NCBI GenBank assembly: GCA_963779315.1
Contig: CAVZXQ010000003.1
Location: forward strand, 85,482 to 149,481
From: an uncultured Chloroflexia bacterium
Lineage (GTDB): Bacteria > Chloroflexota > Limnocylindria > Limnocylindrales > CSP1-4
Reading direction: 5' to 3'
Length of the DNA: 64,000 nucleotides
Made by a program: the position numbers and the translations under genes. This document shows positions 16,484 to 64,000 of this stretch, one piece after another (the stretch's first letter is position 1; every line of letters starts with the position of its first letter). The notes under the pieces are model-generated. The model was given only the letters and a program-made list of their open reading frames with translations. It searched no databases and had not been told where the DNA came from.

Positions 16484-18249
16484 TCAGGCGACTTCCAGAA
16501 GGAGTGGCCGGACGCGACCCCAATCGTTCCAGAGCCTGGCGAGACCGTCCGCGCGACGGCCCAGCATGGCGACCAGCTCACCCAGCGTGAGGTCGCCCGC
16601 CGCCCCGGCCAGGTGCTCATCGGCGGTGACGGTGACGCCGGCGAAGAGGCTCCGCATCCCCGACTCGTCGGGCCACTGCCGGATCCGCATCGGGTCCAGC
16701 CCGGCATAGCCCATGGCCATCGATACGTCGCGCTGCGTCGGGACCCGTTCGTCCAGCCAGCCGCCCAGGCCGTCGAAGCGGAACCCGAGCGACGAGAGGG
16801 CTGTGACGATGTCGCGATCCTGGTCCCTGGTGAACTGGCCCCAGAACGGGTGATCCGTCGGGAAGTCCAGGGCCGACTGGCTGATGCTGATGGCCACGAT
16901 GGCGTCCACCAACTCGGACAGGCTGATCTGCCACAGCCGCTGCTCGGCAGGATCGTCGGAGAGTCGCGCGACCGTCCGCGTCAGCGCCTGGCCGTCACCT
17001 CGTAGCAGCAGGAAGATGACCGGCGTCTGGCCGGCACCGAGCGCCGCAGACAGCGGCTCACTCTCGGCCTCGAAGGGTCCAGGTCCGGCGGGTCCGGGTC
17101 CGGCGGGCCAGGTCCGGCGGGTCCGGGTCCGGGCGCTCCCTGGCCCAGCGGGTCGGCTGCCGGCTCGCCAGGGCCCGGTCCGACCGCCGCCTGGGCGGCC
17201 AGTGCCCTGGCTTCCTCGGCCTCCACGCACTCCGCGACGGCCGTGCGCGCGGCCACACACGCCTCTTCGGCGATCTCGGCCTTGATCCGGGCCGAGTCGG
17301 CCTCGAGTGCGAGGCGTTCCAGTGTCTGCACCATCGCGATGGCCGCCTGGTGTTCTCGGACCGCCTCGGCGCCCGCCTCCTTCACGACGACGTTGATGCG
17401 ATTGATCGCATTGAGCCAATCGCGCGCGGCCGCTTCCACGGCGTCGGGTGAGCTGGCGTTGTTGCGAGCATCGCGGAACGTGGCCTGGGCGGCCTCTTTC
17501 GCACGCCGGATGGATACCGGATCGGTCGCGGCGGCGGCCGCCTCGGCCTTGGCGACATGGGTGTCGTAGGCGCGCTGGGCGGCGCGAAGCGTCTCGTCTG
17601 CGACGCCCACACCGGTCCGGGCACGAGTGGCCGAGTCGCAGCGCTCCACGGAGATCCGGCGCGCTTCGCCGCACGGTCCGCTCAGGTCAGGCGGAGCGAG
17701 CGGGGCTGTTCCAGGGTCCGAACCGGATGCGTCACCTGATCGAGCTTGGGTCACGAGGTCGTCCTCCGGTTCCAGGACAGCGACGGCAGACCGAGCGATG
17801 ACGGCGGCCGTCGCCGGCGCCCGATCCGCGGCGCGAGCCGCGTCAGGCGAAGCATGCGCCATCGCCTGGAACATCGGGTCGCGGCCCGGCTCCACGCGGA
17901 ACCCCACCATCGTGGTCGGGGCGGCGACGACCGCCACCGCGGCTCCGCCTGCCACCGCGGCTCCGCCGGGTCGAACAGCCGTTCGAGTCTCGAGCCTGGG
18001 AGCGCCGCTCGCGCCGTCGCCGATGCCGTGGTCCGCCGGGCCTCCCCTGGCCGGTTCGGGCACGATCAGCGCGAACGCATCCTGGGCGAGGGTCGATCCA
18101 CGCCGGCGGGGTATCGCATCGGGGGTGACCGTCAAGCGGACCTCGCGAGGGGCAGGAGGCCTGGCCCGGAGGACCTCGATGAGTGCCGCCCCGGTGGCGA
18201 CGCCGAGGATGAGGCCCACGGCCAAGAAGGCGAATTCGCTGCCGTTCAC
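16484..18249 (-). CDS. Membrane-anchored coiled-coil protein of unknown function (frame change inside a Pro-Gly repeat)
   Basis: ORF 16981..18249: TM helix FAFLAVGLILGVATGAALI, long Ala/Glu-rich helical segment, PGPGPAGPGP repeat. C-terminal globular domain in ORF 16484..17674 (..FLLLRGDGQALTRTVARL .. GFRFDGLGGWLDERVP..). Confidence 0.5.
17076..17135. repeat. Tandem 15-nt repeat (ggtccRggtccggcg) encoding the (PAGPG)n linker
   Basis: Units at 17076..17090, 17091..17105, 17106..17119 (14 nt, ggcca instead of ggtcca) and 17120..17135. Confidence 0.8.
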
Positions 18250-18362: not shown

Positions 18363-20300
18363 GTGCACGACGGCGGCGGCGGATGGTACATTCCGCACCT
18401 CGACGCCAGCCGTCGATGTCCACTCGCGCCCGAGCCCCGCCACCAGGGAAGGCACGATCTGAACTTGACTGCCGGAACGCCTCAGGAATTCCTCGTCCAG
18501 CCCGTCGACGCCTCCTGGCTCCAGTGCAACATCGAGTGCCAGGAAGCGTGTCCGGTCGGGACGAACTGTCGCGGCTACCTCAACCTTGCCGCTGAAGGGC
18601 GGTTCGAGGAGGGCTACATCCTGTCGCGCGACCCGAACCCGGTCGCGGCGATGTGCTCGTACGTCTGTTCCGCGCCGTGCGAGCGGGCCTGCCGCCGGGG
18701 CGATATCGATCGCCCGCTGGCCATCCGCGCGATGAAGCGGTTCCTGGTGGAGTGGCACGAGGCGTCCGGCATCCCGGACGTCATCCCGCAGATCACGCCG
18801 CGGGCGGAGCGCGTCGCGGTGGTGGGCGCCGGGCCATCCGGGATCGCCGTCGCCCGCGAGCTCGCGACCAAGGGCTACCAGGTCACGGTCTACGACAGCC
18901 TGCCGTACGCCGGCGGCACGATGCTCATCGGCGTCCCGGCGTTCCGCCTCCCGCGCGAAGCCATCGAGATGGACGTTCGTCTCGTCGAGCGTCTCGGTGT
19001 CACCTTCGTGTACGACACGACGATCGGGGTGGACATCGCGTTCGAGGACCTGCAGCGCGACTTCGATGCCATCGCGATCACGGCCGGTGCCATGAACGCG
19101 GTCGGCCTGGACATCCCCGGTGGCGACCTCGACGGCGTGGACTATGGCGTCGACTTCATGAAGAAGGCGAACCTGGGCCAGCCGCTTGAGGTCGGGACCG
19201 ATGTCGTCGTCATCGGCGGCGGCTACACCGCGATGGACTGTTCGCGGACCAGCCTGCGTCACGGGGCGGATCGAGTCTCCATCGTCTACCGGCGGACACG
19301 GTCCGAGCTCGTCGTGGACGAGGAGGAGCTGGGCGAGACCGAACGCGAGGGCGTCCGGATGGAGTTCCTGGCCAGCCCGATCGAGGTCCTCGGCGAAGAC
19401 GGCAAGGTGGTGGGCGTCAAGTTCATCCGCAACCGGCTCGGCGAGCCGGATGCCTCCGGCCGACGGTCCCCGGTCCCGATCGAGGGGTCCGAATTCATCA
19501 TCCCGGCCCAGACCGTCATCCCCGCGGTCTCGCAGGCGGCGGACCTGACGTTCCTGCCGGTCGAGGCCAGGTTCGAGATCAACCGTGGCCGGGTCAAGGT
19601 GGATCCGGCGACCTACGCCACCAACGTCAAGGGCGTCTTCGCCTGCGGCGACTTCGTGACCGGTCCCACCACGCTGATCGAGTCGGCCGGCCATGGCAAG
19701 AAGGCCGCCTACGCGATCGACCGCTACCTCGCCGGGCGGACCGACGTGACGGTCAGCGCCAACGTCAAGGTCACCAGCTCGTGGCGCCACGACATGCCCG
19801 ATTTCTACGACGTCCTGCCGCGACAGCACATCCCGATGGTGCAGCTGTCCGCTCGGATGCCGTCCACGGACCCGATCGTCAACTTCAACACGCCGGTGGA
19901 GCTGGGCTACGACGCCAACGGGGCGGTCGCCGAGTCCACCCGTTGCCTCATGTGCAACTTCAACATCTGGTTCGATCCCTTCCGGTGCGTCCTGTGCGGT
20001 GCCTGCGCGGATGTCTGCCCGGAAGGCGTCATCCACATGGTGGACATCAACACGCTCAAGTCCGAAGGGCTCCTGCCTGAGCTGGAGGAGGCGTACGGCT
20101 GGGAGAACGGCGGGGCGATGATCCTCGACGAAGAGCGCTGCATCCGCTGCGCGCTGTGCGTCAAGCGATGTCCGTTCGACGCCATTACGATGGAGCGGTT
20201 CGAGCTCCAGGAGATCTCGACCGACGGACGGCTCTACAAGGAGTCGTACCGAGACGCGCAACTCGCCGGGACGCCCGGCGTGGCAGGAGGGGCACGGTGA
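18363..20300 (+). CDS. GltD-like NAD(P)H-dependent FAD/FeS oxidoreductase fused to a 2x[4Fe-4S] ferredoxin domain
   Basis: Intact 645-aa ORF. N-terminal Cys clusters CQEACPVGTNC and CSAPCERAC. Dinucleotide folds VAVVGAGPSGIAVA and VVVIGGGYTAMD. GVFACGD. C-terminal CVLCGACADVCP and CIRCALCVKRCP. Exact start uncertain. Confidence 0.85.
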   Translation: MHDGGGGWYIPHLDASRRCPLAPEPRHQGRHDLNLTAGTPQEFLVQPVDASWLQCNIECQEACPVGTNCRGYLNLAAEGRFEEGYILSRDPNPVAAMCSYVCSAPCERACRRGDIDRPLAIRAMKRFLVEWHEASGIPDVIPQITPRAERVAVVGAGPSGIAVARELATKGYQVTVYDSLPYAGGTMLIGVPAFRLPREAIEMDVRLVERLGVTFVYDTTIGVDIAFEDLQRDFDAIAITAGAMNAVGLDIPGGDLDGVDYGVDFMKKANLGQPLEVGTDVVVIGGGYTAMDCSRTSLRHGADRVSIVYRRTRSELVVDEEELGETEREGVRMEFLASPIEVLGEDGKVVGVKFIRNRLGEPDASGRRSPVPIEGSEFIIPAQTVIPAVSQAADLTFLPVEARFEINRGRVKVDPATYATNVKGVFACGDFVTGPTTLIESAGHGKKAAYAIDRYLAGRTDVTVSANVKVTSSWRHDMPDFYDVLPRQHIPMVQLSARMPSTDPIVNFNTPVELGYDANGAVAESTRCLMCNFNIWFDPFRCVLCGACADVCPEGVIHMVDINTLKSEGLLPELEEAYGWENGGAMILDEERCIRCALCVKRCPFDAITMERFELQEISTDGRLYKESYRDAQLAGTPGVAGGAR

Positions 20301-21025
20301 GCTTCTTGGAGCGGGTGGATCAGACCATCCGCCGCAGCCCGGTGTGGCGATCGCTCTTCCGCCAACCCTACCCGCGCGACGAGCGGTCGCGGGCGTACGC
20401 GGTCATGAACAACGTCTTCCTGCACATCCACCCGGTACGGGTGCGTCAGCACGCGGTCAAGTTCGCCTACACGTTCTGCCTGGGCGGCTTGAGCTTCTTC
20501 CTCTTCCTCGTGCTCACCATCACCGGCGTCTACCTGATGTTCTTCTACGTGCCGTCGGCGACGCAGGCCTACACCAACATCCTCGAGATCCAGAGCCAGG
20601 TCACGTTCGGATTGCTGACCCGCAATATCCATCGGTGGGGCGCTCACCTGATGGTCTTCTTCGTGTTCCTGCACATGATGCGGGTCTTCTATCACGGGGC
20701 GTACAAGCCGCCGCGTGAGTTCAACTGGGTCGTGGGCGTCGTCCTGCTGTTCCTGACGATCATGCTCAGCTTCACCGGCTACCTCCTGCCGTGGGACCAG
20801 ATCGCCTTCTGGGCCATCACCATCGGAACCAACATGGGTGGCTACGCACCGATCCTCGGCGTTCCGGGCGGGAAGCTGCTGCTCGGCGGCCTGGAGGTCG
20901 GCCAGAACACGCTGCTGCGCTTCTACGTGCTCCACATCATGTTCCTGCCGCTCGTCATCGCCATCTTCCTGGCAGTCCACTTCTGGCGCATCCGCAAGGA
21001 TGGCGGGATCAGCGGGCCGCTATGA
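20297..21025 (+). CDS. Cytochrome b6-like protein (N-terminal half of a split cytochrome b)
   Basis: GTG 20297 overlaps the upstream TGA. FLHIHPVRV, TFCLGGLSFFLF, RNIHRWGAHLMVFFVFLHMMRVF, LLPWDQIAFWA, RFYVLHIMFLP (four-helix, bis-His pattern). Confidence 0.9.
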   Translation: MSFLERVDQTIRRSPVWRSLFRQPYPRDERSRAYAVMNNVFLHIHPVRVRQHAVKFAYTFCLGGLSFFLFLVLTITGVYLMFFYVPSATQAYTNILEIQSQVTFGLLTRNIHRWGAHLMVFFVFLHMMRVFYHGAYKPPREFNWVVGVVLLFLTIMLSFTGYLLPWDQIAFWAITIGTNMGGYAPILGVPGGKLLLGGLEVGQNTLLRFYVLHIMFLPLVIAIFLAVHFWRIRKDGGISGPL

Positions 21026-21143
21026 CGACTCATCGCGGCGTTGTCGCCTCCGCTCGCTCGCTTACGCACCTTGGGGTGCGCTCGCTCCCGTGCTCGGCTC
21101 CGCCTTGCGCTGAGCCATCCTCGCGGCCCGCGAGGCCACTCCG

Positions 21144-21746
21144 ATGACCGATACCAAGGATCCGCCCGAGACGCGCGTCGTCCTGCCGGTGGACCCGACC
21201 CGCCGGACCGAGATCGACAAGCAGCGCGTCCCGATGTCCGCGCGCCCGTACCGGTTGCTCGCCCTGGTCAAGCAGGACGCGGTCGTGCGGGTCCAGAAGG
21301 AACCCGACGACACGGTCATGACCTGGCCGCACCTGCTCACCATCGAGTTCCTGGCCGCCGGCATGATGAGCATCTTCCTGCTGGCGATGGGCCTGTTCAT
21401 CAACGCTCCGCTGGAGGAGCTGGCGAACGGCAACGTGACGCCGGCCGTCGCCAAGGCCCCCTGGTATTTCCTGGGACTCCAGGAACTGCTGGCCTACTTC
21501 CATCCGACCGTGGCCGGCATGCTCGTGCCTACGTTCGTGCTCGTGGGTGCGGCACTCATCCCGTATGTCGATCGCGGCGATATCCTCGCCACGCGGCCGT
21601 CGCAGCGCAAGACGGCGGTCATGCTGTTCACGATGTTCTGCTGCCTGGGCCTGATCATCACCTTCATCGGGATCTTCTTCCGCGGCCCCGGCTACACCTT
21701 CGTCATCCCGTACGTGACCAGCCCCGGACTCCACTTCGCCCTATGA
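21144..21746 (+). CDS. Cytochrome b6f subunit IV-like protein (C-terminal half of the split cytochrome b)
   Basis: Intact ORF with three TM helices. Qo-loop motif AKAPWYFLGLQELL. Confidence 0.85.
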   Translation: MTDTKDPPETRVVLPVDPTRRTEIDKQRVPMSARPYRLLALVKQDAVVRVQKEPDDTVMTWPHLLTIEFLAAGMMSIFLLAMGLFINAPLEELANGNVTPAVAKAPWYFLGLQELLAYFHPTVAGMLVPTFVLVGAALIPYVDRGDILATRPSQRKTAVMLFTMFCCLGLIITFIGIFFRGPGYTFVIPYVTSPGLHFAL

Positions 21747-21768
21747 CCGGACGAGGAACGACCCGCTC

Positions 21769-22443
21769 ATGAGCAACTACCACGTCGAACCCATCGACAA
21801 GCCCGCCGCGCTCAGCAGCGAGGCGATCAAGGCCCTGCGCAAGGAGCAGGTCCAGGGTCTCTCGAGGCGCCAGCTGCTGCGCAGCGCGATCGGTATCGGG
21901 CTCGGGCTGTGGATCGTCGAGCTCCTCGCCGGGACCCTTGGGTTCCTGTGGCCGAACTTGTCGGGCGGCTTCGGGGCGCCGATCATCATCGGCACGCTCG
22001 ACGACATCAAGGCGCAGAACTCCACGCTGCCGATCGACGAGGGATTCCCGGCCTACTACGCCGAGGCGCGCGCGTTCGTGATGCTCGTCAACGCGGGCCA
22101 GCAGGGGTTCGTCGCCGGCGCCGATACGAGTGGCGATGGCACCGCGCTCAACGTCCGTGCGCTCTACCAGCGCTGCCCGCACCTGGGCTGCAAGCCCAAT
22201 CCGTGCCTGAAGAACTTCTGGCTGGAGTGCCCGTGTCACGGTTCGCGCTACGACCGCCTTGGGATCAAGGCCGCCGGCGAACAGTACGGACCTGCGCCCC
22301 GCAGCATGGACCGGTTCTCGATCGTGGTGGACGGTGAAGGGATCCTTACGGTCAACACCGGCAAGATCACGCTCGGCCCACTGCCGGTGGCGCTCGGCCA
22401 GCCCGGCATCATCCCGCCCCGAACGCCCACCGGGTGCATCTGA
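21769..22443 (+). CDS. Rieske [2Fe-2S] subunit with Tat signal
   Basis: GLSRRQLLRSAIGIGLGLW twin-arginine signal. Cluster boxes CPHLGC and CPCHGS. Confidence 0.9.
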   Translation: MSNYHVEPIDKPAALSSEAIKALRKEQVQGLSRRQLLRSAIGIGLGLWIVELLAGTLGFLWPNLSGGFGAPIIIGTLDDIKAQNSTLPIDEGFPAYYAEARAFVMLVNAGQQGFVAGADTSGDGTALNVRALYQRCPHLGCKPNPCLKNFWLECPCHGSRYDRLGIKAAGEQYGPAPRSMDRFSIVVDGEGILTVNTGKITLGPLPVALGQPGIIPPRTPTGCI

Positions 22444-23540
22444 CGATGACAGAAGAACAGGATCCGCAGCAGCGGCTGCCGGCCACGCGGCCGCAGGATG
22501 AGGCAGCGCCGGTCGAGCAATTCACCGCTGCGCCCCCGGTCCTGAAGGTGGACCTGCCGCCGGAACGCGCCGCGCAGATCGTCCGCCAGTCGTCCAACGC
22601 CCGATGGGTCGCCTTTCTGGCCGTGGTCATCGTGGTGCTGTTCGTTGCCCTGTACTGGTTCTACGAGCTTGGTGGTCCCCTCGGCGTGACCCAGTCGCGC
22701 CTGATCGCTGAGGCCGATGCCCAGCAGGTGACCAAGGTCGAACGTGGCTACAACATCTTCCAGGCCAACTGCGCACGCTGCCACGGTGTCAATGGCGAAG
22801 GTGGCATCGGCCCGATCCTGAACGATCAGGCGAAGCTCTACCAGCACCTCAACGCGGACTACCTGAACACCGTCCTGGTCGCCGGTGGGCGGTATGTCTG
22901 CGGCAACGCCCTGTCGCAGATGCCGGTCTGGTCCAACACCGCGACGCCGCCAGGTCCCCTCAACTACGTCCAGATCGAGGACCTGATCGAGTTCATGCGG
23001 GCGCCCAACACGCAGACGTACACGATCCGCGATCCGGACCTGCTCGAACCCAAGGTGGACCCGATCACGGGCAAGACCAGGACCTTCACGGGTTGGGTGG
23101 ATCCCACCTACAAGCCGGCGCCAGGGGCGACCCCGTTCCCGGCCTGCTGGTCGACTGCCCTTACGACCCCAGCCTCGCCGGCCCCGTCCGGTGGGACCGG
23201 GTCCCCGGCTCCATCCGGCGATGTCACCTCGCCGGCGCCGTCTGACGGGGGCGGAGGGACGGTCACGCTCAACCTTGCGGCCCCGAATGCGGCCGGGTTC
23301 GACCTGACCGAATTGGCGGCCCCGGCCGACGAGATCTTCTACATCCTGTTCTCGAACAACGACCCGGGCGTCCCGCACAACGTGGCCATCAAGGACGCCT
23401 CTGGCTCCGTGATGTTCCAGGGTGAGATCTTCAATGGGGTCGGCACCCGCGAGTACGAAGTGCCCGCACTCCCTGCCGGGACCTACACCTACGTGTGCAG
23501 CGTGCACCTGAACATGACGGGGACCCTGACGGTCAACTAG
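22434..23540 (+). CDS. Membrane-anchored monohaem cytochrome c fused to a C-terminal type-1 copper (cupredoxin) domain
   Basis: TM helix WVAFLAVVIVVLFVALYWF. Haem site ANCARCHG with LSQMPVW. Pro/Ser linker. Cupredoxin ligands PHNVAI and YVCSVHLNMTG. Confidence 0.8.
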   Translation: MHLTMTEEQDPQQRLPATRPQDEAAPVEQFTAAPPVLKVDLPPERAAQIVRQSSNARWVAFLAVVIVVLFVALYWFYELGGPLGVTQSRLIAEADAQQVTKVERGYNIFQANCARCHGVNGEGGIGPILNDQAKLYQHLNADYLNTVLVAGGRYVCGNALSQMPVWSNTATPPGPLNYVQIEDLIEFMRAPNTQTYTIRDPDLLEPKVDPITGKTRTFTGWVDPTYKPAPGATPFPACWSTALTTPASPAPSGGTGSPAPSGDVTSPAPSDGGGGTVTLNLAAPNAAGFDLTELAAPADEIFYILFSNNDPGVPHNVAIKDASGSVMFQGEIFNGVGTREYEVPALPAGTYTYVCSVHLNMTGTLTVN

Positions 23541-23580: not shown

Positions 23581-25033
23581 ATGGCGCAGCAGGCGCTCGG
23601 AGCGGGAACAGCCATACCGCGCAAGCGGGTCGTCTTCGGCCTGCTCGACGCGGACGGATGGGCCTGGGCCGGACTCAAGGCGTTCTTCTGGCTGATCGTC
23701 ATCATCTTCATGCTCGGCTACCTCCCGGACCGCGCCTACTACTTCACGGTGGGCCGGACCGTGGACCTTGGCGTCCTCGCTGGGCGCCCGATCAATGCCT
23801 GCCCGCCGACCAATCGAGACACTCCCGTGTCCGCCTCCCACCGGCGCGATCATCCCGTGGCAGCTGGCGCCCGAGGAGCTCAACTTGCCGGCCGCCAGGA
23901 CCGGTGGTTCGATCATCCAGAACGGCACGACCCTGCTCTACATCGGCGGCTCTGATGGGCAGACCGCGGTGGATACGGTCTACGTCTCCACGGTCTCGGG
24001 CACCGGCAACTTCGACAAGTGGACGGACGGGCCCAAGCTCCCGGCGCCGCGGTCCGGGGCCAGCGTCGCGTTCGTGGCCGGCAGCATCTACGTCATCGGT
24101 GGCCGCGATGCCGCGGGCGTCCCGACCGACACCATCTTCGCGCTCAACCCAGACCCCAAGACCGGCGCACTCGGCGAGTGGAAGCCGACGGATCTCGTCC
24201 TGCCTGAGGGTCGAGCCGATGCGGCAGGTGTCGTCTCGACGACCGGTCTCCTGTTGATCGGTGGATCGAACGCGGACGGACCGGTCAACACGACCTGGAA
24301 GTCTGTGCCGACATCCACCGGCGCCCTGGGAGCGTGGCAGGTCGAGGCGCCACTGCTATTCCCGCAGACGAACGCCGCCGCGGCGGTCGTCGGCGACTAC
24401 GTGTGGCTGTACGGCGGCAGTGACGCCAACGGACCGGTCGGCGCCGTCCAGCGAGGCACATTCGGCGCCCCGGCCCCCGAAGGGTTCCCGATCGATCCGA
24501 ACGAAGGCAAGGTCACCGAGTGGGCAGTGAGCGACTCGGCGAACCTGCCGGTGGCACGGACCGAGGCTTCCGGATGGAGCGCCAACGGTGCGATCTACCT
24601 TGCCGGCGGGTCCGACGGGACCGCCCCGCAGAGCCAGGTCTACTGGGCGATCCCGACGACGGACGGCAACATCCCGGAGTGGAAGCACCTTGACGTCAGC
24701 GACCTGCCGGCCGGCGGTCTCGCCGGCGCCGCTCCGGTGCTGCTCGGACCGGAGATCGTGCTGGTCGGCGGCACGACCTCCACGGGCGTCGTGGACTCGA
24801 GTATCCGGGCCAACACGGCTCCGCAGTCGCCGTTCTTCTCGCTCGGGGTCCTTGGCGCGACGGTCCCCGGCCTCAAGCTGGATGGCGAGATCGGTCAGCA
24901 GCTGGGCTACACGGCCGCCGCCACGGTCGGGATGGCCAACTTCGCGATCCTGGTCTTCATCGGCTGGGTGTTCGCGCACAAGACGCAGGCCACCGCGATG
25001 TTCCATCGGCTCCGGCGGCGCGGCAAGCGCTGA
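23581..25033 (+). CDS. Kelch-repeat beta-propeller protein with N- and C-terminal TM helices (one frame change near 23815)
   Basis: SD ggaggaa 23573..23579 and ATG 23581. N-terminal TM helix AFFWLIVIIFMLGYL (ORF 23560..23955). Repeats LLYIGGSDG, IYVIGGRDA, LLLIGGSNADG, VWLYGGSDANG, IYLAGGSDG, VLVGGTTSTG. C-terminal TM helix MANFAILVFIGWVF (ORF 23768..25033). Confidence 0.7.
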
Positions 25034-25034
25034 C

Positions 25035-25406
25035 CTAGTCGGTCGGGAGATCGCCCTCGCCCGGTGAGGGCCGGCCGCGCAGGATCGGCAGGCCCGCACG
25101 TTCCCAGGCGGCCATGCCGCCGGCCACGTTGACCACGTCGGTCCGGCCCGTCCGCATGAGGTAGCTGGTGACGGCCGCGGACCGGCCGCCCGAGTGGCAG
25201 ATGACCAGGATCGGTCGGTCCGTCGGCAGCTCCGCGAGCCGAGCCATGAACTGCGACGTCGGCACGAGGGCGGCACCGGGCGCGCGCACGTCGCTGAACT
25301 CATTCGGTTCGCGGACATCGAGCAGCAGCGGCCGGTCCGTGTCCTCGCGCAGGCGGCGGTCGGCCTCGTGGACATCGACGGTCGGCAGGGCGACGGGTTG
25401 GGTCAT
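25035..25406 (-). CDS. Single-domain rhodanese-like sulfurtransferase
   Basis: Intact ORF. LLDVREPNEF and active-site loop ICHSGGRSA. Confidence 0.85.
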   Translation of the reverse strand: MTQPVALPTVDVHEADRRLREDTDRPLLLDVREPNEFSDVRAPGAALVPTSQFMARLAELPTDRPILVICHSGGRSAAVTSYLMRTGRTDVVNVAGGMAAWERAGLPILRGRPSPGEGDLPTD

Positions 25407-29116: not shown

Positions 29117-30338
29117 ATGGATAGTGGCGATACCGCCTGGATGCTGATGTCCACGGCGCTGGTCATGATCATGTTGCCTGGCCTGGCGCTCTTCTACGGC
29201 GGCCTCGTCCGCAGCAAGAACGTGCTGTCCACCGTCATGCACAGCTTCTTCGGCCTGGCCCTTGTCAGCATCGTGTGGGTCGTCGTCGGCTTCTCGCTGG
29301 CGTTCGGCCCGGATGTCAACGGTATGGGCCTCATCGGCAATCTGGACTACGTCTTCTTCAACAACGTCGGGATGGAACCGTCCACGGTCTACGCAGTGAC
29401 CATCCCCTTCGTGCTGTTCGCCTCGTTCCAGCTCATGTTCGCGGCCATCACGCCCGGCCCTGATCACCGGGGCCTTCGCCGAGCGCAAGCGCTTCGGGTC
29501 GTTCGTGCTCTTCACGATCCTGTGGTCCATCGTCGTCTACGCCCCGCTGGCCCACTGGGTCTGGTCCGTGGACGGCTGGCTGTACCAGCTCGGCGCGCTC
29601 GACTTCGCCGGTGGCACCGTCGTCCACATCAGCTCGGGCGTGTCCGCCCTGGTCGTCGCCCTGATGCTCGGTCGCCGCGCGCTCAACGGCACGCACCCGG
29701 AGCCGCACGACATCCCGATGACCGTCCTGGGCGCCGGCCTGCTGTGGTTCGGCTGGTTCGGCTTCAATGCCGGGTCCGCGGTCGCCGCCAACGGCCTGGC
29801 CGCGAGCGCCTTCACGGTCACCAACATCGCGGCCGCCGCGGCCACCGTCACCTGGGTCATGGCGAGCTACATCCACACGCGCAAGGTCAGCGTCGTCGGT
29901 GCCGCCTGCGGCGCCGTCGCCGGCCTCGTGGCGGTCACCCCGGCCTCCGGCTACGTCACCGTGGGCGGGGCCCTGACCATCGGGCTGGTGGCCGGCGGGC
30001 TGTGCTACAGCGCCACGCTCCTGCGAGCGCGGTCCAAGGTGGACGACGCGCTGGACGTCTTCGCGGTGCACGGCGTCGGGGGCATGTTCGGGGCCGTCGC
30101 GACCGGCATCTTCGCCTCGTCCAGCATCCAGGCCGCCTACTCCGGCCTGCTCGAGGGTAACCCGCAGCAGCTGGTCAACCAGCTGATCGCTGTCGGTGCG
30201 ACGGTCGGGTACGCCGTCGTCGCCACCGTCGTCATCGTCAAGGTGGTGGACCTCCTGCTCGGGATCCGGGTCAAGCCGGCCGCCGAGGAGATGGGCCTGG
30301 ACCTCTCGGTGCACGGGGAGGCTGCCTACACCGCCTGA
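29117..30338 (+). CDS. amtB: Ammonium transporter (one frame change at about 29453..29456)
   Basis: SD ggaggag then ATG 29117. MDSGDTAWMLMSTALVMIMLPGLALFYGG (ORF 29087..30160). DFAGGTVVHISSG, LLWFGWFGFNAGS, DVFAVHGVGGMFG (ORF 29505..30338). Confidence 0.9.
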
Positions 30339-30464
30339 CTCGACCCCCTCGTCCTCCGGTCGCGGCCGGTCACCGTCGGCTCCTCCCGGCGGTGGCCGGT
30401 CCGACCTATCTTCGGAGACTGGACCTTGGCCACCAAACGACGCCACGATCGAGCACCCGCCGCG

Positions 30465-33400
30465 ATGGACGCCCCGCTGTACGACGCGCGCTTCGAGCAC
30501 GATGCGTGTGGCGTGGGGTTCGTGGCGGATGCCGGCGGTCGGTCGCGCGACCGGGTCCTGCCTCTGGCGCTCGCTGGACTGGCCTCGCTGGCGCACCGCG
30601 GCGCATTCGGGGCGGACGGCGAATCGAGCGATGGCGCCGGCGTCGCGCTGCCGCTGGATCGGTCGCTCCTCGAGCTGATCGGCGGTCCAGCTGCGGCCGC
30701 GACGGGCTCCCTGGCGTCCTGTTCTGCTTCCTGCCGCGCCACCGTCCAGCGGCGTCCCGTGCCCGGGCACTCGTCGAGCGAGCCGTCGACGAAGCGGGCC
30801 TGCGCGTCCTCGGCTGGCGCGAGGTCCCTGCCGATCCGGGCGCATTGGGCGCGTCGGCGGCTGCGTCCCGGCCGGCCTTCGCCCAGGCGATCGTGGCGCG
30901 ACCGCACCGGTCCCCGGGCGACCCCCGCCCAGCCTCCGACGACGCCTTCGAGCGCCGGCTCGGTCTCGCCCGGCGCCGGGTCGAGACTGCAGCACGGGCG
31001 GCGGGCGGAGTGGTCGCCGAGCTGTCGATCCCGTCGGCATCGTGTCGGACGATCGTCTACAAGGGTCTGGTGACCGGCGGGCGACTGCCGGACCTCTACC
31101 CTGACCTGCGGGCCGCGCTGAGCTTCGACTACGCGGTCTTCCATCAGCGCTACGCGACGAACACGCACCCGGTCTGGCGGCTCGCCCAGCCGTTCCGCTC
31201 GATCGCCCACAACGGCGAGATCAACACGGTCCGCGGCAACCGCGAGCAGGTGCGCGGCCGGACCGCCGATGCCGGCGGCGGACCGTGCCGCGTGGCCGCC
31301 GACCTGCTGGCCGCCGGGCCGCTCCTGTCGCCGGACGGCTCCGACTCGCTGTCGCTGGACGAGGCCCTCGAACTCCTGACGACGACCGGCTGGGCGCTGA
31401 CGCCCGCGCTCCTGGCGGCGATCCCCGAGGCACCCGCCCTGCGCCGCTCGCCACACCCGCAGGTCGCCACGTGGCGGCGCCGGACCGCCGGGTTCATGGC
31501 GCCGTGGGATGGGCCGGCTGCCATCGTGTTCGCGGACGGCGACCGGGTGGGCGCGCTGGTGGACCGCAACGGGCTGCGGCCGGCCGCGTTCGCGGTCACC
31601 TCGGACCGGGTCGATCGGCCTGGCCTCCGAGGCGGGCGCCATCCCGTTCACGGCCGCCGAGACCGTTCGTCGCGGGCGCCTGGGGCCGGGCGAACTGCTG
31701 CTCGTGGAGCCGCGCCGCCACGCGATCCTCGAGGATGCCGAGGCCAAGGCCTGGGTGCTTCGGACGATGCCGATCCACGACGCGCCACGTCCGGTCCACG
31801 ACGACCGGTCCGAGGCGGCAGCCGCGGCCATCGAGACGCGTCCGGCGCGCTCGGCACGGAGCGCGCTATCTCGCCGGCCTGGACGCGGAACGAGCCCGCC
31901 TGGACATCAAGACGATGGCGCTCGAGGCGCACGAGCCGCTCTGGAGCATGGGCGACGACACGCCGACCGCGGGCCGAGGCCGGCTCGACCGCCCGGTGGC
32001 CGATCACCTGCGCCAGGCATTCGCGCAGGTCACGAATCCGGCGATCGACCCGGAGCGCGAGCGCGCCGTCATGGACCTGCGGGTGGAGCTCGGTCGACGG
32101 CCGGCGATGCTTGGCGGGCCGCCGCGCGGGCCACGGACCGTTCGCCTGGCACGCCCGATCGTGGTGGATCTGGACGGCCTGCTCGGTCGCTCCGCGCGGC
32201 GCGGCGTCCGGACGCGAGCGACTCGACCCGCTCTGGCCGGCCGCCGAGGGGACGGCCGGACTGGAGGCGGCGCTGGAGCGGCTGGCGTCGGACGCCGTCG
32301 CGGCCGCGCGGGCCGGTACCGAGGTTCTGTCACCTGACCGACGTCTCGTTCGGCACCGAGCGGCTGCCGATCCCGTCGATCCTCGCCTGCGGCGCGGTCC
32401 ACACGGCGTTGACCGCCGCCGGACTGCGCGGGCCGAACGGATCTGCTCGTCGAGGCGTCGGACATCCTGGACGTCCACTCGATGGCGATGGTCATCGCCG
32501 TCGGGCGCGACGGCCGTGCATCCATGGCTGGCACTGGAGCTCGCGGCCGAACTGGCCGGGACGCGCGGCGCCGAGGACCTGGCGCCCGCCGACACCATCG
32601 AGCGCCTCACGCTCGCCTTCGAAGCCGGGCTGCGCAAGACCCTGGCGCGGATGGGGATCAGCGCCGTCTCGTCGTATGTCGGCGGCGCGCTGGTGGACGT
32701 CGTCGACCTGGACCGCGTCGGTCGTCGCGCGCTGCTTCCCGATGGCTGCCGCCTGGCCGGGCCGGACGACCTTCGCGGACCTGGCCGGGCGCCAGCTTCG
32801 ACGTCGGGATGCGGCCGCCGCCCTGCCCGAGCCGCCGCCCGGCCGCGAGGCGCGCCTCCCGGATCCCGGATTCGCCCGGTTCCGCGCCGATGGCGAGGCG
32901 CACCTGTTCTCGCCGAAGATCGCCGGGGAGATCCAGGCACTGGCGTCGGTCGGCGCGGGCGATGACGTGGAGGCGCGCGCTGGCCCGGTACCGCGCGGCC
33001 CTCGCCCGTCCCGGCGGACGCCACCGTCCGTCCCGCGCGACGAGCTTCGGGTCCGCCATCTCCGTACGGCGATCGCCCTGGATGACGTCGAGGACGCGCG
33101 GTCGCATCGTCCGGCGGTTCGTCGTGTCCGCGATGAGCGTGGGGGCACTCAGCCCGGAGGCCCATCAGGCGCTGACGATCGGGATCCAGCGCGCCGGCGG
33201 AGCGGCGAACACCGGCGAGGGCGGCGAGGACCCGGCCTGGTACGTGCCCGGCGAGGACGGCCGGCGGCGCGATGCCCGGATCAAGCAGGTCGCCTCGGCC
33301 CGGTTCGGCGTCACCGCCACGTACCTGGCGCGAGCCGACCAGCTCGAGATCAAGATCTCGCAGGGTTCGAAGCCGGGCGAGGGCGGCCAGCTCCCGGGCC

Positions 33401-35034
33401 GCAAGGCCACGGCGTACATCGCCGTCGCTCCGTCGTGGCCAGGCCGGCCAGAGCTACATCAGCCCGCCGCCGCACCACGACATCTACTCGATCGAGGACC
33501 TTGCCCAGCTCATCGCGGACCTGCGGGCGATCAACCCGCGCGCCCGGATCGGCGTCAAGCTCGTCGCGAGCCGTGGGGTCGGGACGGTCGCGGCAGGCGT
33601 GGCCAAGGCGGGCGCCTCCTACATCCACCTGTCCGGCCATGCCGGCGGGACGGGAGCCTCGCCGCTGTCGTCGATCAAGCACGTCGGGGCGCCATGGGAA
33701 CTCGGACTCGCCGAGGTCCACCAGACACTCCTGCGCAACGACCTGCGCGATCGCGTCGCTCTCCGCACGGACGGCGGCCTCCAGACCGGCCGAGACCTGC
33801 TGGTCGCGGCGCTGCTCGGAGCTGAGGAGTTCGCGTTCGGGACGGCGGCGCTCGTCGCCATCGGCTGCGACATGGCCCGCCAGTGCCACCTCGACACCTG
33901 CCCGACCGGCATCGCCACCCAGCGCGAGGACCTGCGGGCGAAGTTCACCGGCACGCCCGAGATGATCGAGCGGTTCGTGCTGGCCCTCGCGGAGGATCTC
34001 CGCCGGGAGCTGGCTGCGGTGGGCGCCCGGTCCGTCGGCGAGCTGGTCGGGGAGTCGCGCCGGCTGCTGACCACGCTCCCGGCGGCCCGCGCGGAACTGA
34101 CGCCCGTCGATCGGCGCCCCTTCGTGGACCGCGTCCGCTGCTCGTCGCGCAGACCCGGCCAGCGCGGATCGCGACACGCCCCGCGTTCCCGCGTCCGCCC
34201 TGGAGGCGCGCGTCGCCGCGGCCTTCGCCGACCAGGAGTCCGTGACGGCCGGCGGTCTGCGCCTGACGACCGCGGACCGATCGTTCGGGGCCGCGCTCAC
34301 GGGCGCCATCGAGCGCGGAGACCTGCGCCGGTCCGGTCCACTTGGCCGTGAAGGGCGCCGCCGGCCAATCCTTCGGTGCCTTCGCCGGCGAGGGCGTCAC
34401 GCTGCGGCTCGTCGGCCAGGCCAACGACTACGTCGGCAAGGGCCTGTCGGGCGGCTCGATCACCGTCGTCCCGGAGCCTGAGCTGACCGCGACCGCCTCA
34501 AGCCAGGCCATCGCCGGCAACACCGTTCTCTATGGCGCCACGGCCGGCCGGCTCCACCTCGTCGGACGGGCCGGGATGCGCTTCGCGGTCCGCAATAGTG
34601 GCGCCGAGGCCGTGGTGGAGGGGATCGGCCCGCACGGCTGTGAGTACATGACCGGCGGCACGGTCGTCGTCCTGGGTCCGATCGGCGCCAACTTCGGGGC
34701 CGGCATGACCGGCGGCCGCGCCTACCTGTTCGATCCGGACGGCCGGCATCTGGCCGCGCTCGACGGGGCGAGCGTCTCGGGCACCCGCCTGTCCTCCGTG
34801 GTCGCGGATCGGGTCGACGGTCCGGAGCGAGCCGCCGAATTCGATCGCCTCCTGCGCGCCCACCGCGGCGCCGGGTCCGTGCTGGCGGGGTCGCTTCTCG
34901 AGGAACCGGCACTGGCGTCGTGCGTCTGGATCGTGGAACCGATCCCGCAGGCCGTCGCGCCGCAACCGGACCGCAACGCTGTCGTGCCCGAGCCGGTGCC
35001 GACACAGGAGCGACACGCACCTACCCTGCGATGA
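30465..35034 (+). pseudogene. gltB: Glutamate synthase large subunit (about 1520 aa) with at least a dozen frame changes as sequenced
   Basis: MDAPLYDARFEHDACGVGFVAD (Ntn amidotransferase Cys). HQRYATNTHPVWRLAQPFRSIAHNGEINT. FAQVTNPAIDPERE. FMN/FeS domain [62 protein letters not shown]-terminal GXGXG domain [24 protein letters not shown]. Pieces are spread over ORFs 30426.., 30392.., 31509.., 31285.., 32482.., 33272.., 34242.., 34342..35034. Confidence 0.9.
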
Positions 35035-60437: not shown

Positions 60438-61561
60438 CTACTTGAGCGTCGCCGTCCCCGTCATGTCGGGTATCGGGTGCAGCGAACAGATGTAGGTGTA
60501 GGTTCCCGCCGGAAGGGCCCCGATGTCGTACACCACGGACGAGACGCCGACGATGGGCTTCGTTGTCGGCCACCTTCGCCCCGGATGCGTCGATCAGGTC
60601 GACGTCGTGCGCGATGCCGGCGGCCTGGTTGTCGAAGACGATCGTGAACGGCTTGTCGGCGGGTGCCGTGAACGCCTTCTCGACGAAGGCGATGCCCTGC
60701 GCCGTCACCGTCACGTCACCCGTCGGCAGTGGTGCGGCGCTGCCGACCGCTGCCGACGGGCGGCAGCCGGCCGGCGGACCAGCGGACCCGACTGGCGGCC
60801 CGCCCGACGCGCCTGGCGTCCCCGTATCGCCACTGGCCTCGCGTGGCGGAAGGACCCCGGTCTGGATCAGGATGCCGCCCACGAGCAGGACGGCCAGCGT
60901 GCCGAGCAGCAGGGCCGGCGTTCGCGGCGGCGGGGATGTTCTCCAGGTGGCCGGTCTGGTCCGCCTCGACCGTCTTGCGGTACTCCTTCACGGCGTCCAC
61001 CAGCCAGCCGATCAACGTGACGATCAGGGCGATGACGCCGATCCCCAGGAGCAACCCGCCGAAGACCAGGCCCAGCATCAGCATCGTGGCGCCGATGGCG
61101 CCAAGCAGCGGGCGGTAGGACGGGCCGGGCATGTGGACGCCTTCCGGCGGGCCGTCGTGGACCACGACCGGCAGCGGTGGCGCCGAGGCCGAGATCTCGT
61201 GATCGTAGACGCGCATCGCCTCGGCCAGCCAGTACAGCAGCGTCAGCGCGAACGCGATCGCGCCGAGGTACAGGATCACGCCACCGAAGACCAGCCCGAG
61301 GAACATCAGGAAGGCGCCCACGGCCGCGAAGATCGGCGAGAAGGACGGTCCGGGCATGTGGATCCCGGCGGGGGTCGCCGGCTCGATGCGCTCGAAGCCG
61401 CGCCGCGCCTTGGGGGCCGTCAGCAGCCGGCGGAACAGGATCGCGAAGACCACGAGGACCAGCAGCAGGATGCCGATCGGGATGAGCGCGATCAGCGCTC
61501 CCCAGTCCGGGATGACGAACTGGGAGAGTTCGTTCAGCAGCGCGCTCCAGACCTCGAACAT
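60438..61561 (-). pseudogene. Internally duplicated CtaF/oxidase-subunit-IV-like membrane module, apparently fused (after two frame changes) to a TM helix and a type-1 copper cupredoxin domain
   Basis: ORF 60716..61561 contains two copies of G(I/V)HMPGPS(F/Y).P...A.GA....LGLVFGG......I(A).....TL..WL..A...Y. Then ..LLLGTLAVLLVGGILIQTG and ORF 60085..60882 (VTVTAQGIAFVEKAFTAPADKPFTIVFDNQAAGIAHDVDL). My translation of 60560..60438 gives VYDIGALPAGTYTYICSLHPIPDMTGTATLK-stop. Confidence 0.55.
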
Positions 61562-61831: not shown

Positions 61832-62476
61832 CTACTTGCCCGGGACGAGGTAGAGGAGCGTGAACAGCAGGATCCAGACGACGTCCACGAAGTGCCAGTA
61901 CAGCGAGGCCGCCTCGACGGCATCGTGATGGCGGGCCGAGAACTGGCCGGCCATGCCGCGGTACAGGACGACGGCCAGCATGATCACGCCACCGAAGACG
62001 TGGGCTCCGTGGAAGCCGGTCAGCGTGTAGTACGTGGTGCCGAACACGCCGGACGACAGGGTCAACCCTTCATGCCCGAGCATGAAGTAGTCCGCCCCCT
62101 GCATCAGCAGGAAGGTGATGCCCAGCCCGAGCGTGACGGCCATGGCTCGCAGGAACTTCGTCCGGTCGCCCTTGCGGATGGACCAGACCGCGATCTGGCA
62201 GGTGAACGAGCTGATGATCAGGAGGATCGTGGCAGGACCCACGAACGGCAGGATCTGGAGCGTGTCGGCGAACTCCTCGGGAGGCCAGAACTCGGCCGAC
62301 GCACGCGAGTTGAAGTAGGCCGCGAACAGGCCGGCGAAGAACATCACCTCGGAGGTGATGAACAGCATCATCCCCAGGATCGGGTTGCTGATCCCTCCAC
62401 GGCGGTCGTGCCCGTAGTTCTCCAGCGGGTCGTGCTGGACCGGGGCGGTGGTCAGATGCCTGGCTGTCGGTCGTCA
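61832..62476 (-). CDS. ctaE: Cytochrome c oxidase subunit III (frame change near 62440)
   Basis: ORF 61832..62371: [54 protein letters not shown]. The N-terminal extension ..[22 protein letters not shown] is in the same frame. The likely ATG at 62476 is in another frame. Confidence 0.85.
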
Positions 62477-62488
62477 TCGTCGGCTCGC

Positions 62489-64000
62489 TCAGTGGTCCGT
62501 CGCCGGGCCGTGCCGGAGATCGAACAGCGGCCGCTCGGAGCGGATCTCCGGCAGGCGGTCGAAGTTGTACGGCGGCGGTGGCGAGCTCGTCGCCCACTCC
62601 AGCGTGTTCGCCTCCCACGGATCGTCCCCGGCCGGCGTTCCGCTGCGCAGCGAGACGAAGATGTTCCAGAGGAGCGGCAGCATGCTCGCGGCGATCAGGA
62701 ACCCGCCGGACCGTGGCCACGAGGTTCAGGTCGTTCCAGCCGGCCGTGCTGGAGTAGTCGGCGATCCGCCGGGGCATCCCGGCCAGTCCTAGCTCGTGCA
62801 TCGGGAAGAACGTCAGGTTGAACCCGATGAACATCAGGACGAACTGCACCTTGCCCAGCGTCTCGTTGAGCATCCGCCCGGTCATCTTGGGGAACCAGTA
62901 GTAGAACCCGGCCATGATCCCGAAGACGGATCCACCGAACAGCACGTAGTGGATATGGGCGACCACGAAGTAGGTGTCGTGGAGCGCGAAGTCCACCGGG
63001 ACCGACGCGCTGAAGGCTCCGTTGATCCCGCCAAGGAGGAACATCGAGAGGAACCCGATCGCGAAGATCATCGGCGTCGAGAACGTGAGCTTGCCTCGCC
63101 ACATGGTGAAGATCCAGTTGAACATCTTCACGCCCGGTCGGGATGGCGATCAGGAACGTCATCAGGCTGAAGAACGGCAGGTAGACCGAGCCGGTCGTGA
63201 ACATGTGGTGGGCCCACACGGAGAAGCCCGAGGGCGCCGATGCCGGCGGTCGCGAACACGAACGCCTTGTAGCCGAACAGCGGCTTGCGGCTGAAGACCG
63301 GCAGGATCTCGCTGATCATGCCCATCGCCGGCAGGATCATCACGTAGACGGCCGGGTGCGAGTAGAACCAGAAGACGTTCTGGTAGAGGACCGGGTCACC
63401 CCCGACACTCGGGTCGAAGAAGCTGCCGCCGTAGTTCCGGTCGATGAACAGCATGATCAGCGCGCTGGTGATGACGGGCGTGGCCATCAGCACCAGGACG
63501 GACGTCACCAGGACCGTCCAGACCATGATCGGCATCCGGAACAGGGTCATCCCGGGCGCGCGCATCTTGAAGATGGTGACCAGGAAGTTGATGGCGCCCA
63601 GGATGGAACTCGTGCCGATCAGGACGAGCGCCACGATCCACAGGTCCTGGCCGGTGCCCGGCGATGCCAGCGGCGCATCCGTCGAGAGCGGCGCGTAGCT
63701 GGTCCAGCCGGCAGCGGCCGTGCCGCCCGTGACGAACCCGGCCAGCAGCAGGACGCCGGCGAGCGGAAGCATCCAAAGCGACAGGGCGTTGATCCGCGGG
63801 AACGCCATGTCCGGCGCGCCGAGCATGAGCGGGACGACGTAGTTGCCGAAGCCCGCCAGCATCGGGATCACGAACAGGAAGATCATGAACGTGGCGTGCA
63901 TCGTGAACAGTTCGTTGTAGGTCTGCGCCGTGACGAACTGCAGTCCGGGCACGGCCAGCTCGCTGCGCACGGCCAGGGCGAGGATGCCGCCGACGAAGAA
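62489..64000 (-). pseudogene. ctaD: Cytochrome c oxidase subunit I, N-terminus beyond the window end; about three frame changes in the window
   Basis: ORF 63128..63970 (FTMHATFMIFLFVIPMLAGFGNYVVPLMLGAPDMAFPRINALS, GWTSYAPLS, FWFYSHPAVYVMILPAMG). WAHHMFTTG (ORF 62695..63219). [27 protein letters not shown] (ORF 62070..63131). C-terminus in ORF 62489..62683. The frame stays open to position 64000. Confidence 0.9.

Follow-up and report, generated by a model that had tools for sequence, protein, structure and literature searches.

The question raised by the locus described here is whether an iron-sulfur (Fe-S) flavoprotein of the NAD(P)H type, whose gene heads an operon for a Rieske/cytochrome b complex in an uncultured Chloroflexia bacterium, is a working part of that complex and, if so, in which direction it passes electrons. 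The operon occupies 18.3-23.6 kb of a 64,000-nucleotide stretch of contig CAVZXQ010000003.1, referred to throughout as the window, and encodes, in this order, the flavoprotein, a cytochrome b6-type subunit, a subunit IV-like protein, a Rieske [2Fe-2S] protein and a fusion of a cytochrome c with a cupredoxin. We conclude, with a probability of roughly 0.85, that these genes specify an NAD(P)-linked Rieske/cytochrome b complex of the anammox-type family. A preliminary description had taken the locus for an uncharacterised NAD(P)-linked variant of the complex; gene set, synteny and homology to the anammox complexes speak for this, while the arrangement proved to be neither unique nor restricted to anammox bacteria. 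Association and activity of the complex are inferred, as regards the binding of the flavoprotein, its preference for NADPH, the potentials of the redox centres and, above all, which way electrons flow.

All five open reading frames lie on the forward strand at the coordinates claimed for them, are intact in frame and match the expected Pfam families, and the motifs quoted earlier were recovered from the translations. Their third-position G+C content (0.82-0.91, in a window of ~70% G+C) is at the level expected of real genes. The flavoprotein gene had been given as 18363..20300, and this frame does encode a flavoprotein with a 2x[4Fe-4S] domain; its start, by contrast, is probably not the upstream GTG at 18363 but the TTG at 18465, because the homologues are overwhelmingly 611 amino acids (aa) long and start with MAIDPNQEF. 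In ~100 of them this N-terminus aligns with LTAGTPQEF of the window, and the 34 codons between the two candidate starts show no conservation. The flavoprotein so delimited (18465..20300, 611 aa; matched in Pfam, NCBIfam and PDB) is followed by the cytochrome b6-type subunit (20297..21025, 242 aa; Pfam Cytochrome_B, 1.2e-47; NCBIfam ExtP, 295 bits), the subunit IV-like protein (21144..21746, 200 aa; Pfam Cytochrom_B_C), the Rieske protein (21769..22443, 224 aa; Pfam Rieske) and the monohaem cytochrome c-cupredoxin fusion (22434..23540; Pfam Cytochrom_C, 1e-8, and Cupredoxin_1, 3e-7). The corresponding genes of a 1.2 Mb relative encode proteins of 611, 242, 200, 224 and 358 aa, in agreement with the window. 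The translational-coupling junction between the first two genes (20285..20300), for which an overlap of a TGA at 20298..20300 with a GTG at 20297 had been reported, was read directly from the sequence as ...GCAGGAGGGGCACGGTGAGC..., with AGGAGG at 20285-20290 lying 6 nucleotides upstream of the GTG (20297-20299) of the cytochrome b gene and the TGA of the flavoprotein gene at 20298-20300; the same 4-nucleotide overlap is present in the related loci L001-L005 and L017. All five operon genes are under purifying selection, with the lowest ratios of nonsynonymous to synonymous substitution rates (dN/dS) in the flavoprotein and cytochrome b: measured against four relatives, dN/dS was 0.08-0.19 for the flavoprotein, 0.09-0.21 for cytochrome b, 0.15-0.31 for subunit IV, 0.23-0.37 for the Rieske protein and 0.34-0.41 for the cytochrome c-cupredoxin. 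A scan of the sequence for promoters and terminators returned nothing above chance.

The product of the first gene combines an N-terminal cysteine domain (Fer4_20), Rossmann folds for flavin adenine dinucleotide (FAD) and NAD(P) (Pyr_redox_2, 1.7e-25) and a C-terminal 2x[4Fe-4S] ferredoxin domain (two Fer4 matches), as judged by Pfam for 18363-20300. We correct the GltD/COG0493 label first attached to it: GltD (2vdc) is matched at 3e-64, and both GltD and dihydropyrimidine dehydrogenase rank behind NfnB-like modules in the PDB search, namely Bfu-type NfnA (9n5u, 5e-108; 9bov/9bp5, 5e-108), StnC (8oh5, 1e-92) and NfnB (4ylf_B, 2.4e-84). Following the second Rossmann strand, a VYRRT...EL segment aligns with IVYRRTEREMP of NfnB, a site that binds NADPH in this family of enzymes. 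In an alignment of 33 full-length relatives 15 cysteines are invariant, which we read as 3x4 + 3: eight of them make up the C-terminal 2x[4Fe-4S] domain, C25, C29, C494 and C497 plausibly form a third Fe-S cluster, and C68, C72 and C76 would provide a fourth site with only three cysteines, in agreement with the Kuenenia subunits, whose FAD-nearest cluster is described as having no fourth cysteine. The protein is predicted to be the cytoplasmic (N-side) subunit of the complex. A reading as the small subunit of glutamate synthase (GOGAT), GltD, was ruled out by the gltD cut-offs, the neighbours of gltB and the extra ferredoxin domain: the scores against the NCBIfam models TIGR01317 and TIGR01318 were 200 and 261 (cut-offs 448 and 483), no gltD-like gene adjoins gltB (30.4-35.0 kb), whose next gene codes for a response regulator on the opposite strand, and the protein, at 611 aa, is longer than GltD (~450-490 aa), which has no counterpart of its C-terminal 2x[4Fe-4S] domain.

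The preliminary description had proposed synteny as a test of the linkage, and the adjacency turned out to be conserved. A scan of one genome per GTDB species with an alignment of eight flavoprotein sequences gave 80 loci, which were then searched by tblastn with the window proteins; flavoprotein and cytochrome b are neighbours in the Limnocylindria loci without exception and, over about ten phyla, in 48 of the 80 related loci. Such an arrangement is common and by no means exceptional, and the flavoprotein is supported as a genomic member of the Rieske/cytochrome b operon. Two further loci end directly after the flavoprotein gene, and 30 show other architectures, with NfnB-like proteins that are either short or part of fusions 860-1390 aa in length. 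Among 8000 candidates scored in a profile search, 6842 were relatives of the linked flavoprotein type at E<=1e-30. The order flavoprotein, cytochrome b, subunit IV, Rieske protein and cytochrome c, usually followed by a gene for a Kelch protein, is common to all Limnocylindria loci examined and recurs in one Ardenticatenales and one Actinomycetes locus, while flavoprotein, Rieske protein and cytochrome b (split or fused to subunit IV) stand together in Acidobacteriota (Terracidiphilus, Bryobacteraceae, Chloracidobacterium), Verrucomicrobiota, Victivallales, Planctomycetales, Zixibacteria, Abyssobacteria, Eisenbacteria, Calditrichaceae, Nitrospirae and Waddliaceae. The notion that only flavoproteins with a C-terminal ferredoxin domain are linked to cytochrome b was wrong, since several unlinked homologues align as far as residue 570-610.

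These data bear on the possibility that the flavoprotein is co-transcribed with the complex but is no subunit of it, acting instead as a soluble NfnB/GltD-like oxidoreductase with, for example, GltB or a ferredoxin as its partner. The same domain architecture does occur, alone or fused, in many loci without cytochrome b (30/80), and the GltB of the window has no small subunit adjoining it. However, the adjacency is kept across about ten phyla, in two gene orders and with a start/stop overlap, the flavoprotein evolves at a rate as low as that of cytochrome b and scores below every gltD cut-off, and the homologous subunits of Kuenenia co-migrate with the complex (work of de Almeida, 2016, cited by both PMC5600118 and PMC12954380). 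We therefore consider a free-standing flavoprotein very unlikely.

Cytochrome b has cytochrome b6 as its best PDB match (6rqf_I, 2.7e-52), in an alignment that begins only at residue 59; it contains four haem-ligand histidines and a CLGG motif whose Cys61 is equivalent to Cys35 of b6 at the haem ci/cN site, and its 26-residue N-terminal extension carries NNVFLHIHP (His43). The subunit IV-like protein has three hydrophobic helices, the Qo motif APWY (KAPWYFLGLQEL) and a conserved segment, TWPHLLTIEF, whose Glu is a candidate axial ligand of haem ci. The Rieske protein shows a twin-arginine motif (SRRQLLR), a single transmembrane helix and two boxes, CPHLGC and CPCHGSRY, of which the second has the Ser/Tyr signature of high potential. 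The cytochrome c fusion noted earlier exists, and we correct its description to a monohaem cytochrome c (one CxxCH, CARCH) joined to a type-1-copper-like cupredoxin, with one transmembrane helix ahead; the copper ligand motifs are the His in PHNV and C-x2-H-x2-M in YVCSVHLNM, with amicyanin-like spacing, and in the PDB the protein resembles QcrC, auracyanin A and plastocyanin weakly. This protein is predicted to be the electron exit on the P side. The operon is neither a canonical b6f nor a Firmicute b6c operon: the Qo motif is APWY and not PEWY/PDWY, a cytochrome c-cupredoxin is found and not cytochrome f or a dihaem cytochrome c, and the flavoprotein gene overlaps the petB-like gene.

Most of these marks extend beyond the window. 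All but two of the aligned subunit IV sequences have APWY (48/50; the two single-residue variants are AAWY in L037 and R for K before APWY in L061), Rieske box II reads CPCHGS-x-Y/F in 43 of 44 linked loci, and an equivalent of His43 occurs in all linked cytochromes b (49/49). The haem-ci Cys (CxGG) is found, among the loci of the 80-locus scan, only in Limnocylindria and in the Nitrospirae locus L061; the separately found anammox-type locus L083 has CMGG, and eight loci in which cytochrome b is fused to subunit IV (L029, L035, L038, L044, L048, L049, L058 and L077; 415-522 aa) have no such Cys (GLG[GVIL]/YLG). The P-side partner of these complexes appears to be modular and interchangeable, because the locus L082 (6001-13908), one of the relatives from the profile search, combines flavoprotein, Rieske protein and a 524-aa fused cytochrome b with a 940-aa multihaem cytochrome c and a molybdopterin oxidoreductase.

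The parallel with anammox bacteria drawn in the preliminary description is borne out by homology. In the PDB, the Rieske protein matches 9rk4 (3e-11) and 9rk3 (1.4e-9) best; these are Kuste4569 and Kustd1480, respectively (PMC12954380), and the CPCHGSxY signature of the window protein equals that of Kuste4569 (+303 mV), an equality of sequence signature only. A search with the 9rk4 fragment led to L083, whose Rieske protein is 85% identical to that fragment and whose genes (Rieske protein, 585-aa flavoprotein, cytochrome b, a subunit IV-like protein in which five segments are hydrophobic, a cytochrome with six CxxCH motifs and a multihaem protein with eight) match the organisation described for kuste4569-4574. 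When aligned with L083, the window flavoprotein is 38% identical over 582 aa (2e-128), a stretch that takes in IVYRRTREEMP and the two ferredoxin motifs, cytochrome b is 51% identical over 248 aa (5e-94), including NVWLHLHP and CMGG, and subunit IV is 41% identical over 152 aa, including TWP...EFLAA and AKAPWYFLGLQE. His43 of the window aligns with the L083 histidine that corresponds to His43 of Kuste4571, and the extra interface haem b at this place is a prediction. The statement that NAD(P)-oxidoreductase subunits had been discussed for anammox complexes only was too narrow and out of date, as PMC5600118 and PMC4122944 cover other bacteria as well.

The linked flavoproteins fall into more than one type. 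Limnocylindria and the anammox-type L083 have YRR at the NAD(P) site, as opposed to [C/S/A]LE plus an insertion of 20-60 aa within the second Rossmann fold in the main cross-phylum lineage and in the cytochrome b-linked flavoproteins outside Limnocylindria (L018-L080; compared with residues ~250-290 of the window flavoprotein, in the 19300-19360 region), a difference which suggests differing nucleotide preferences between the lineages. Neighbour-joining trees built on the flavoprotein core domain recovered both Limnocylindria and the main cross-phylum lineage as monophyletic (100/100 bootstraps each).

In the mechanism that we propose, the five proteins would form a b6f-type complex of the APWY clade with an NfnB-like, NADPH-type Fe-S flavoprotein on its cytoplasmic face. 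Menaquinol would be oxidised at the Qo site; the first electron would pass through the high-potential Rieske cluster, haem c and the blue-copper domain to the aa3 oxidase, and the second by way of the b haems, bL and bH, with haem ci, into the four Fe-S clusters, FAD and finally NADP+. The flavoprotein would dock on the N side and exchange electrons with haems bH/ci, possibly via an interface haem ligated by His43, and respiration would thereby pay for NADPH formation. Both quinol-driven NADP+ reduction and NADPH input stay in contention as the direction of flow. We tentatively favour the former as the main direction, at odds somewhat short of even, because the near-universal high-potential Rieske signature would otherwise be unexplained in the lineages of the linked loci, which are generally menaquinone users. 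For the anammox complexes, a diversion of the low-potential electron of Qo bifurcation to NAD(P)+ was proposed by Kartal et al. (2013); more recently, Rieske potentials of +303 and +335 mV have been reported, and with menaquinone (~ -70 mV) haem bP could be near -475 mV (Hauser et al., 2025; PMC12954380).

The same complex may instead take its input from the opposite end, with electrons running from NADPH through FAD and the Fe-S chain to haem bH/ci and on to quinone at Qi, as a hard-wired version of the Q cycle assisted by ferredoxin:NADP+ reductase (FNR) and ferredoxin that has been discussed for the b6f of chloroplasts, with NADPH:quinone or NADPH:cytochrome c oxidoreductase activity. The conserved haem-ci Cys, subunit IV Glu and Arg of RIRKDG indicate that the Qi pocket may function, the reaction would be strongly exergonic, and the need of an aerobe for NAD(P)H oxidation is more obvious than that for NADPH synthesis; moreover, FNR co-purifies with cyanobacterial and plant b6f (PMC5600118), and this option is explicitly considered in PMC12954380. 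NADPH input would, however, leave unexplained why 43 of 44 linked loci of generally menaquinone-using taxa have a high-potential Rieske signature, would assign no role to the APWY Qo motif and the clade-specific features, and would waste ~250 mV per electron, energetic grounds on which it is disfavoured by Hauser et al. (PMC12954380). We thus hold it to be unlikely, yet the chief competitor of the preferred direction.

A third direction was suggested by the APWY motif itself, in which Pro stands for the H-bonding Glu/Asp and which has been interpreted as a mark of reverse operation (PMC4122944): electrons from cytochrome c/Cu, together with a low-potential electron from NADPH, would reduce quinone at Qo (confurcation). 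As that proposal of Kao and Hunte was built on a single gene-context argument from Geobacter, as the aa3 oxidase would consume reduced cytochrome c, and as no lithotrophic donor system was seen within the window, we regard such a reverse run as highly improbable.

Several points weigh against quinol-driven NADP+ reduction by a complex of this family. To our knowledge, no complex of this kind has a measured activity in any organism, and a heterotrophic aerobe has other sources of NADPH. The Qi-side residues Cys61, subunit IV Glu and RIRKDG Arg are kept and would still allow normal quinone reduction, and the energy balance for NADP+ reduction, as estimated from the quoted potentials, is tight when the membrane potential is included. 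Arg511 of Kuste4570, if the numbering of L083 applies, aligns with an Ala in the window. The motif around His43 may belong to the APWY clade as a whole, because the NCBIfam model ExtP, from the flavoprotein-free ext cluster of Geobacter, covers this region. Finally, the neighbour-joining trees united Limnocylindria neither with the main cross-phylum lineage (0/100 bootstraps) nor with the anammox type (0/100), the latter being placed among unlinked NfnB-like proteins. Repeated recruitment, module replacement or rate artefacts are possible explanations of this split, for which neighbour-joining on the present sampling is weak evidence.

The nearest proteins (84-94% identical) come from metagenome-assembled genomes (MAGs) labelled Candidatus Limnocylindrales/Limnocylindria or Chloroflexi. 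An aa3-type oxidase, which had been claimed for 61.8-64 kb, is encoded at 60.7-64 kb of the window by COX1, COX3 and Cyt_c_ox_IV (an actinobacterial-type subunit IV). A second cupredoxin-like stretch (60441-60819, reverse strand) adjoins these oxidase genes; it is matched in two frames, and the similarity is to the cytochrome c-cupredoxin orthologue of L001, in the C-terminal domain of that protein. The observation that many other genes of the window are broken in frame was likewise correct, the oxidase genes, GltB and an ammonium transporter gene all being in pieces: GltB (30392-35034, forward strand) is in at least four frame pieces, COX1 (62070-63970, reverse strand) in two, and the split ammonium transporter gene that adjoins GltB (29505-30338, forward strand) is missing the first ~115 profile positions. 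These frame breaks are at least as likely to be assembly indels as pseudogenes, because the nearest relatives are long-read MAGs, in two of which the flavoprotein gene itself is broken. An aerobic lifestyle of the host, resting as it does on frame-broken oxidase genes, was overstated.

Directly downstream of the operon lies a conserved gene for a membrane-anchored Kelch beta-propeller (23581..25033, forward strand; Pfam Kelch), which changes frame at ~23816-23835, the L001 orthologue matching in two frames. A Kelch gene follows the cytochrome c gene in nine Limnocylindrales loci (L001: 13062-14492), and the protein gave only generic Kelch/propeller matches in Pfam and PDB; it could be a sixth operon member or a P-side partner, either being uncertain. 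It is followed by a rhodanese gene on the reverse strand (25035-25406), which is kept in L001 (14497-14880, also reverse strand); the Geobacter ext cluster has a rhodanese-like gene too, and the parallel is probably a coincidence. Upstream of the operon, a divergent open reading frame (16981-18249, reverse strand) encodes an Ala/Pro-rich protein of 422 aa with one N-terminal hydrophobic segment and no Pfam match, and at the same position L001 has a gene for 617 aa, which is also without a Pfam match.

The value of the locus lies in the widening of a hypothesis to common aerobic bacteria and not in the novelty of the architecture. The proposal that Qo bifurcation diverts electrons from the Q cycle to NAD(P)H has been argued almost solely for slow-growing anammox enrichments. 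As the four core subunits with their diagnostic motifs are present in an aa3-bearing Chloroflexota and in other phyla, the same gene set occurring in Acidobacteriota, Verrucomicrobiota, Planctomycetota and others, this hypothesis becomes testable in more tractable aerobes, and what is annotated as 'complex III' in bacteria that abound in soil and freshwater may conceal a different enzyme. In its widest form, which we consider speculative and rather improbable, the complex would be the main or only complex III of Limnocylindria and many aerobic soil phyla, working as a bifurcating menaquinol:(cytochrome c/Cu + NADP+) enzyme, with NfnB-like modules recruited to APWY cytochromes b more than once; repeated recruitment would fit the trees, in which the flavoproteins of Limnocylindria, of the anammox type and of the main cross-phylum lineage stand apart, and the difference in NAD(P) sites (YRR compared with [CS]LE plus insertion). 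If this were true, a good part of the aerobic respiration of soils and lakes would yield NADPH at complex III itself. Were the complex to oxidise NADPH only, it would represent a naturally hard-wired counterpart of the FNR-b6f route of cyclic electron flow, which has long been debated.

Among known systems, the flavoprotein is closest to NfnB, Bfu-type NfnA and StnC, which gave its best matches and with which it has in common the Fe-S domain as well as the sites for FAD and for NADPH (VYRRT...EMP). As opposed to the Nfn transhydrogenases, however, the operon neighbours include neither the NfnA (FNR-like)/HydB partner nor HydABC-like partners; the partner here is a membrane cytochrome b, and bifurcation, if any, would take place at the quinol Qo site and not at the flavin. 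Akin to cytochrome b6f with FNR, the locus combines a b6-type cytochrome b with subunit IV and haem ci, with blue copper as the electron acceptor and with an NADP(H) flavoenzyme on the N side. The differences are that FNR is unrelated to the NfnB-like protein and is not encoded with petB, that the Fe-S wire is absent from b6f, and that the window operon has no cytochrome f, has APWY in place of PEWY and stands in no chlorophyll-related context. Membership of the Geobacter ExtP/ExtQ families was rejected, the ExtP score of 295 against a cut-off of 290 being marginal and that for ExtQ being 52 against 150; the selenite/tellurite ext cluster (extHIJKLMNOPQS), in which ExtOPQ are a Rieske protein, a cytochrome b and a membrane protein, comprises multihaem cytochromes, a porin and a rhodanese and no flavoprotein, whereas the window has no ext-type multihaem or porin genes.

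A literature search on Limnocylindria respiratory chains, operons of gltD with Rieske genes, and complexome studies returned nothing specific, and the relevant surveys are phylogenomic. Kao and Hunte (2014) delineated a cross-phylum APWY clade of cytochrome b that includes Chloroflexi, has only Mid+/high-potential Rieske signatures and had no characterised member as of that survey (PMC4122944); the window operon resembles it in the APWY Qo motif, the split cytochrome b and the Rieske Ser-Tyr pair (S-Y or S-F in 43/44 loci). Similarly, Dibrova et al. are cited in PMC5600118 as noting that short cytochromes b co-occur 'in many other cases' with NAD(P)-binding Fe-S oxidoreductases, and their 'subfamily G' (Dibrova, 2013, 2017; PMC5600118), compared here by its description and together with the APWY clade, shares with the window those same features and this reported co-occurrence. 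Limnocylindria, the cytochrome c-cupredoxin fusion and the two types of NAD(P) site are not described in the accessible text of the APWY and subfamily G surveys.

The closest counterparts are the anammox complexes Kuste4569-4574 and Kustd1480-1485, with which the operon shares the haem-cN Cys, a separate subunit IV with APWY, the Ser/Tyr Rieske signature, the C-terminal Arg of cytochrome b and a flavoprotein that carries VYRRT, has sites for FAD, for NAD(P) and for four Fe-S clusters (three Cys only in one of these) and has the same PDB neighbours as Kuste4570. They differ on the P side, where the anammox complexes have hexa- or octahaem cytochromes and an HAO-like octahaem protein in place of the one monohaem c-cupredoxin, in subunit IV, which has three helices in the window and five in the anammox-type L083, and in gene order, the flavoprotein coming first in the window and the Rieske protein in the anammox type; in addition, the host of the window has aa3 oxidase genes. 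Taken together, the operon encodes an already known, biochemically uncharacterised kind of complex, in which the cytochrome c-cupredoxin exit, the three-helix subunit IV, the flavoprotein-first order and the aa3-bearing host are new.

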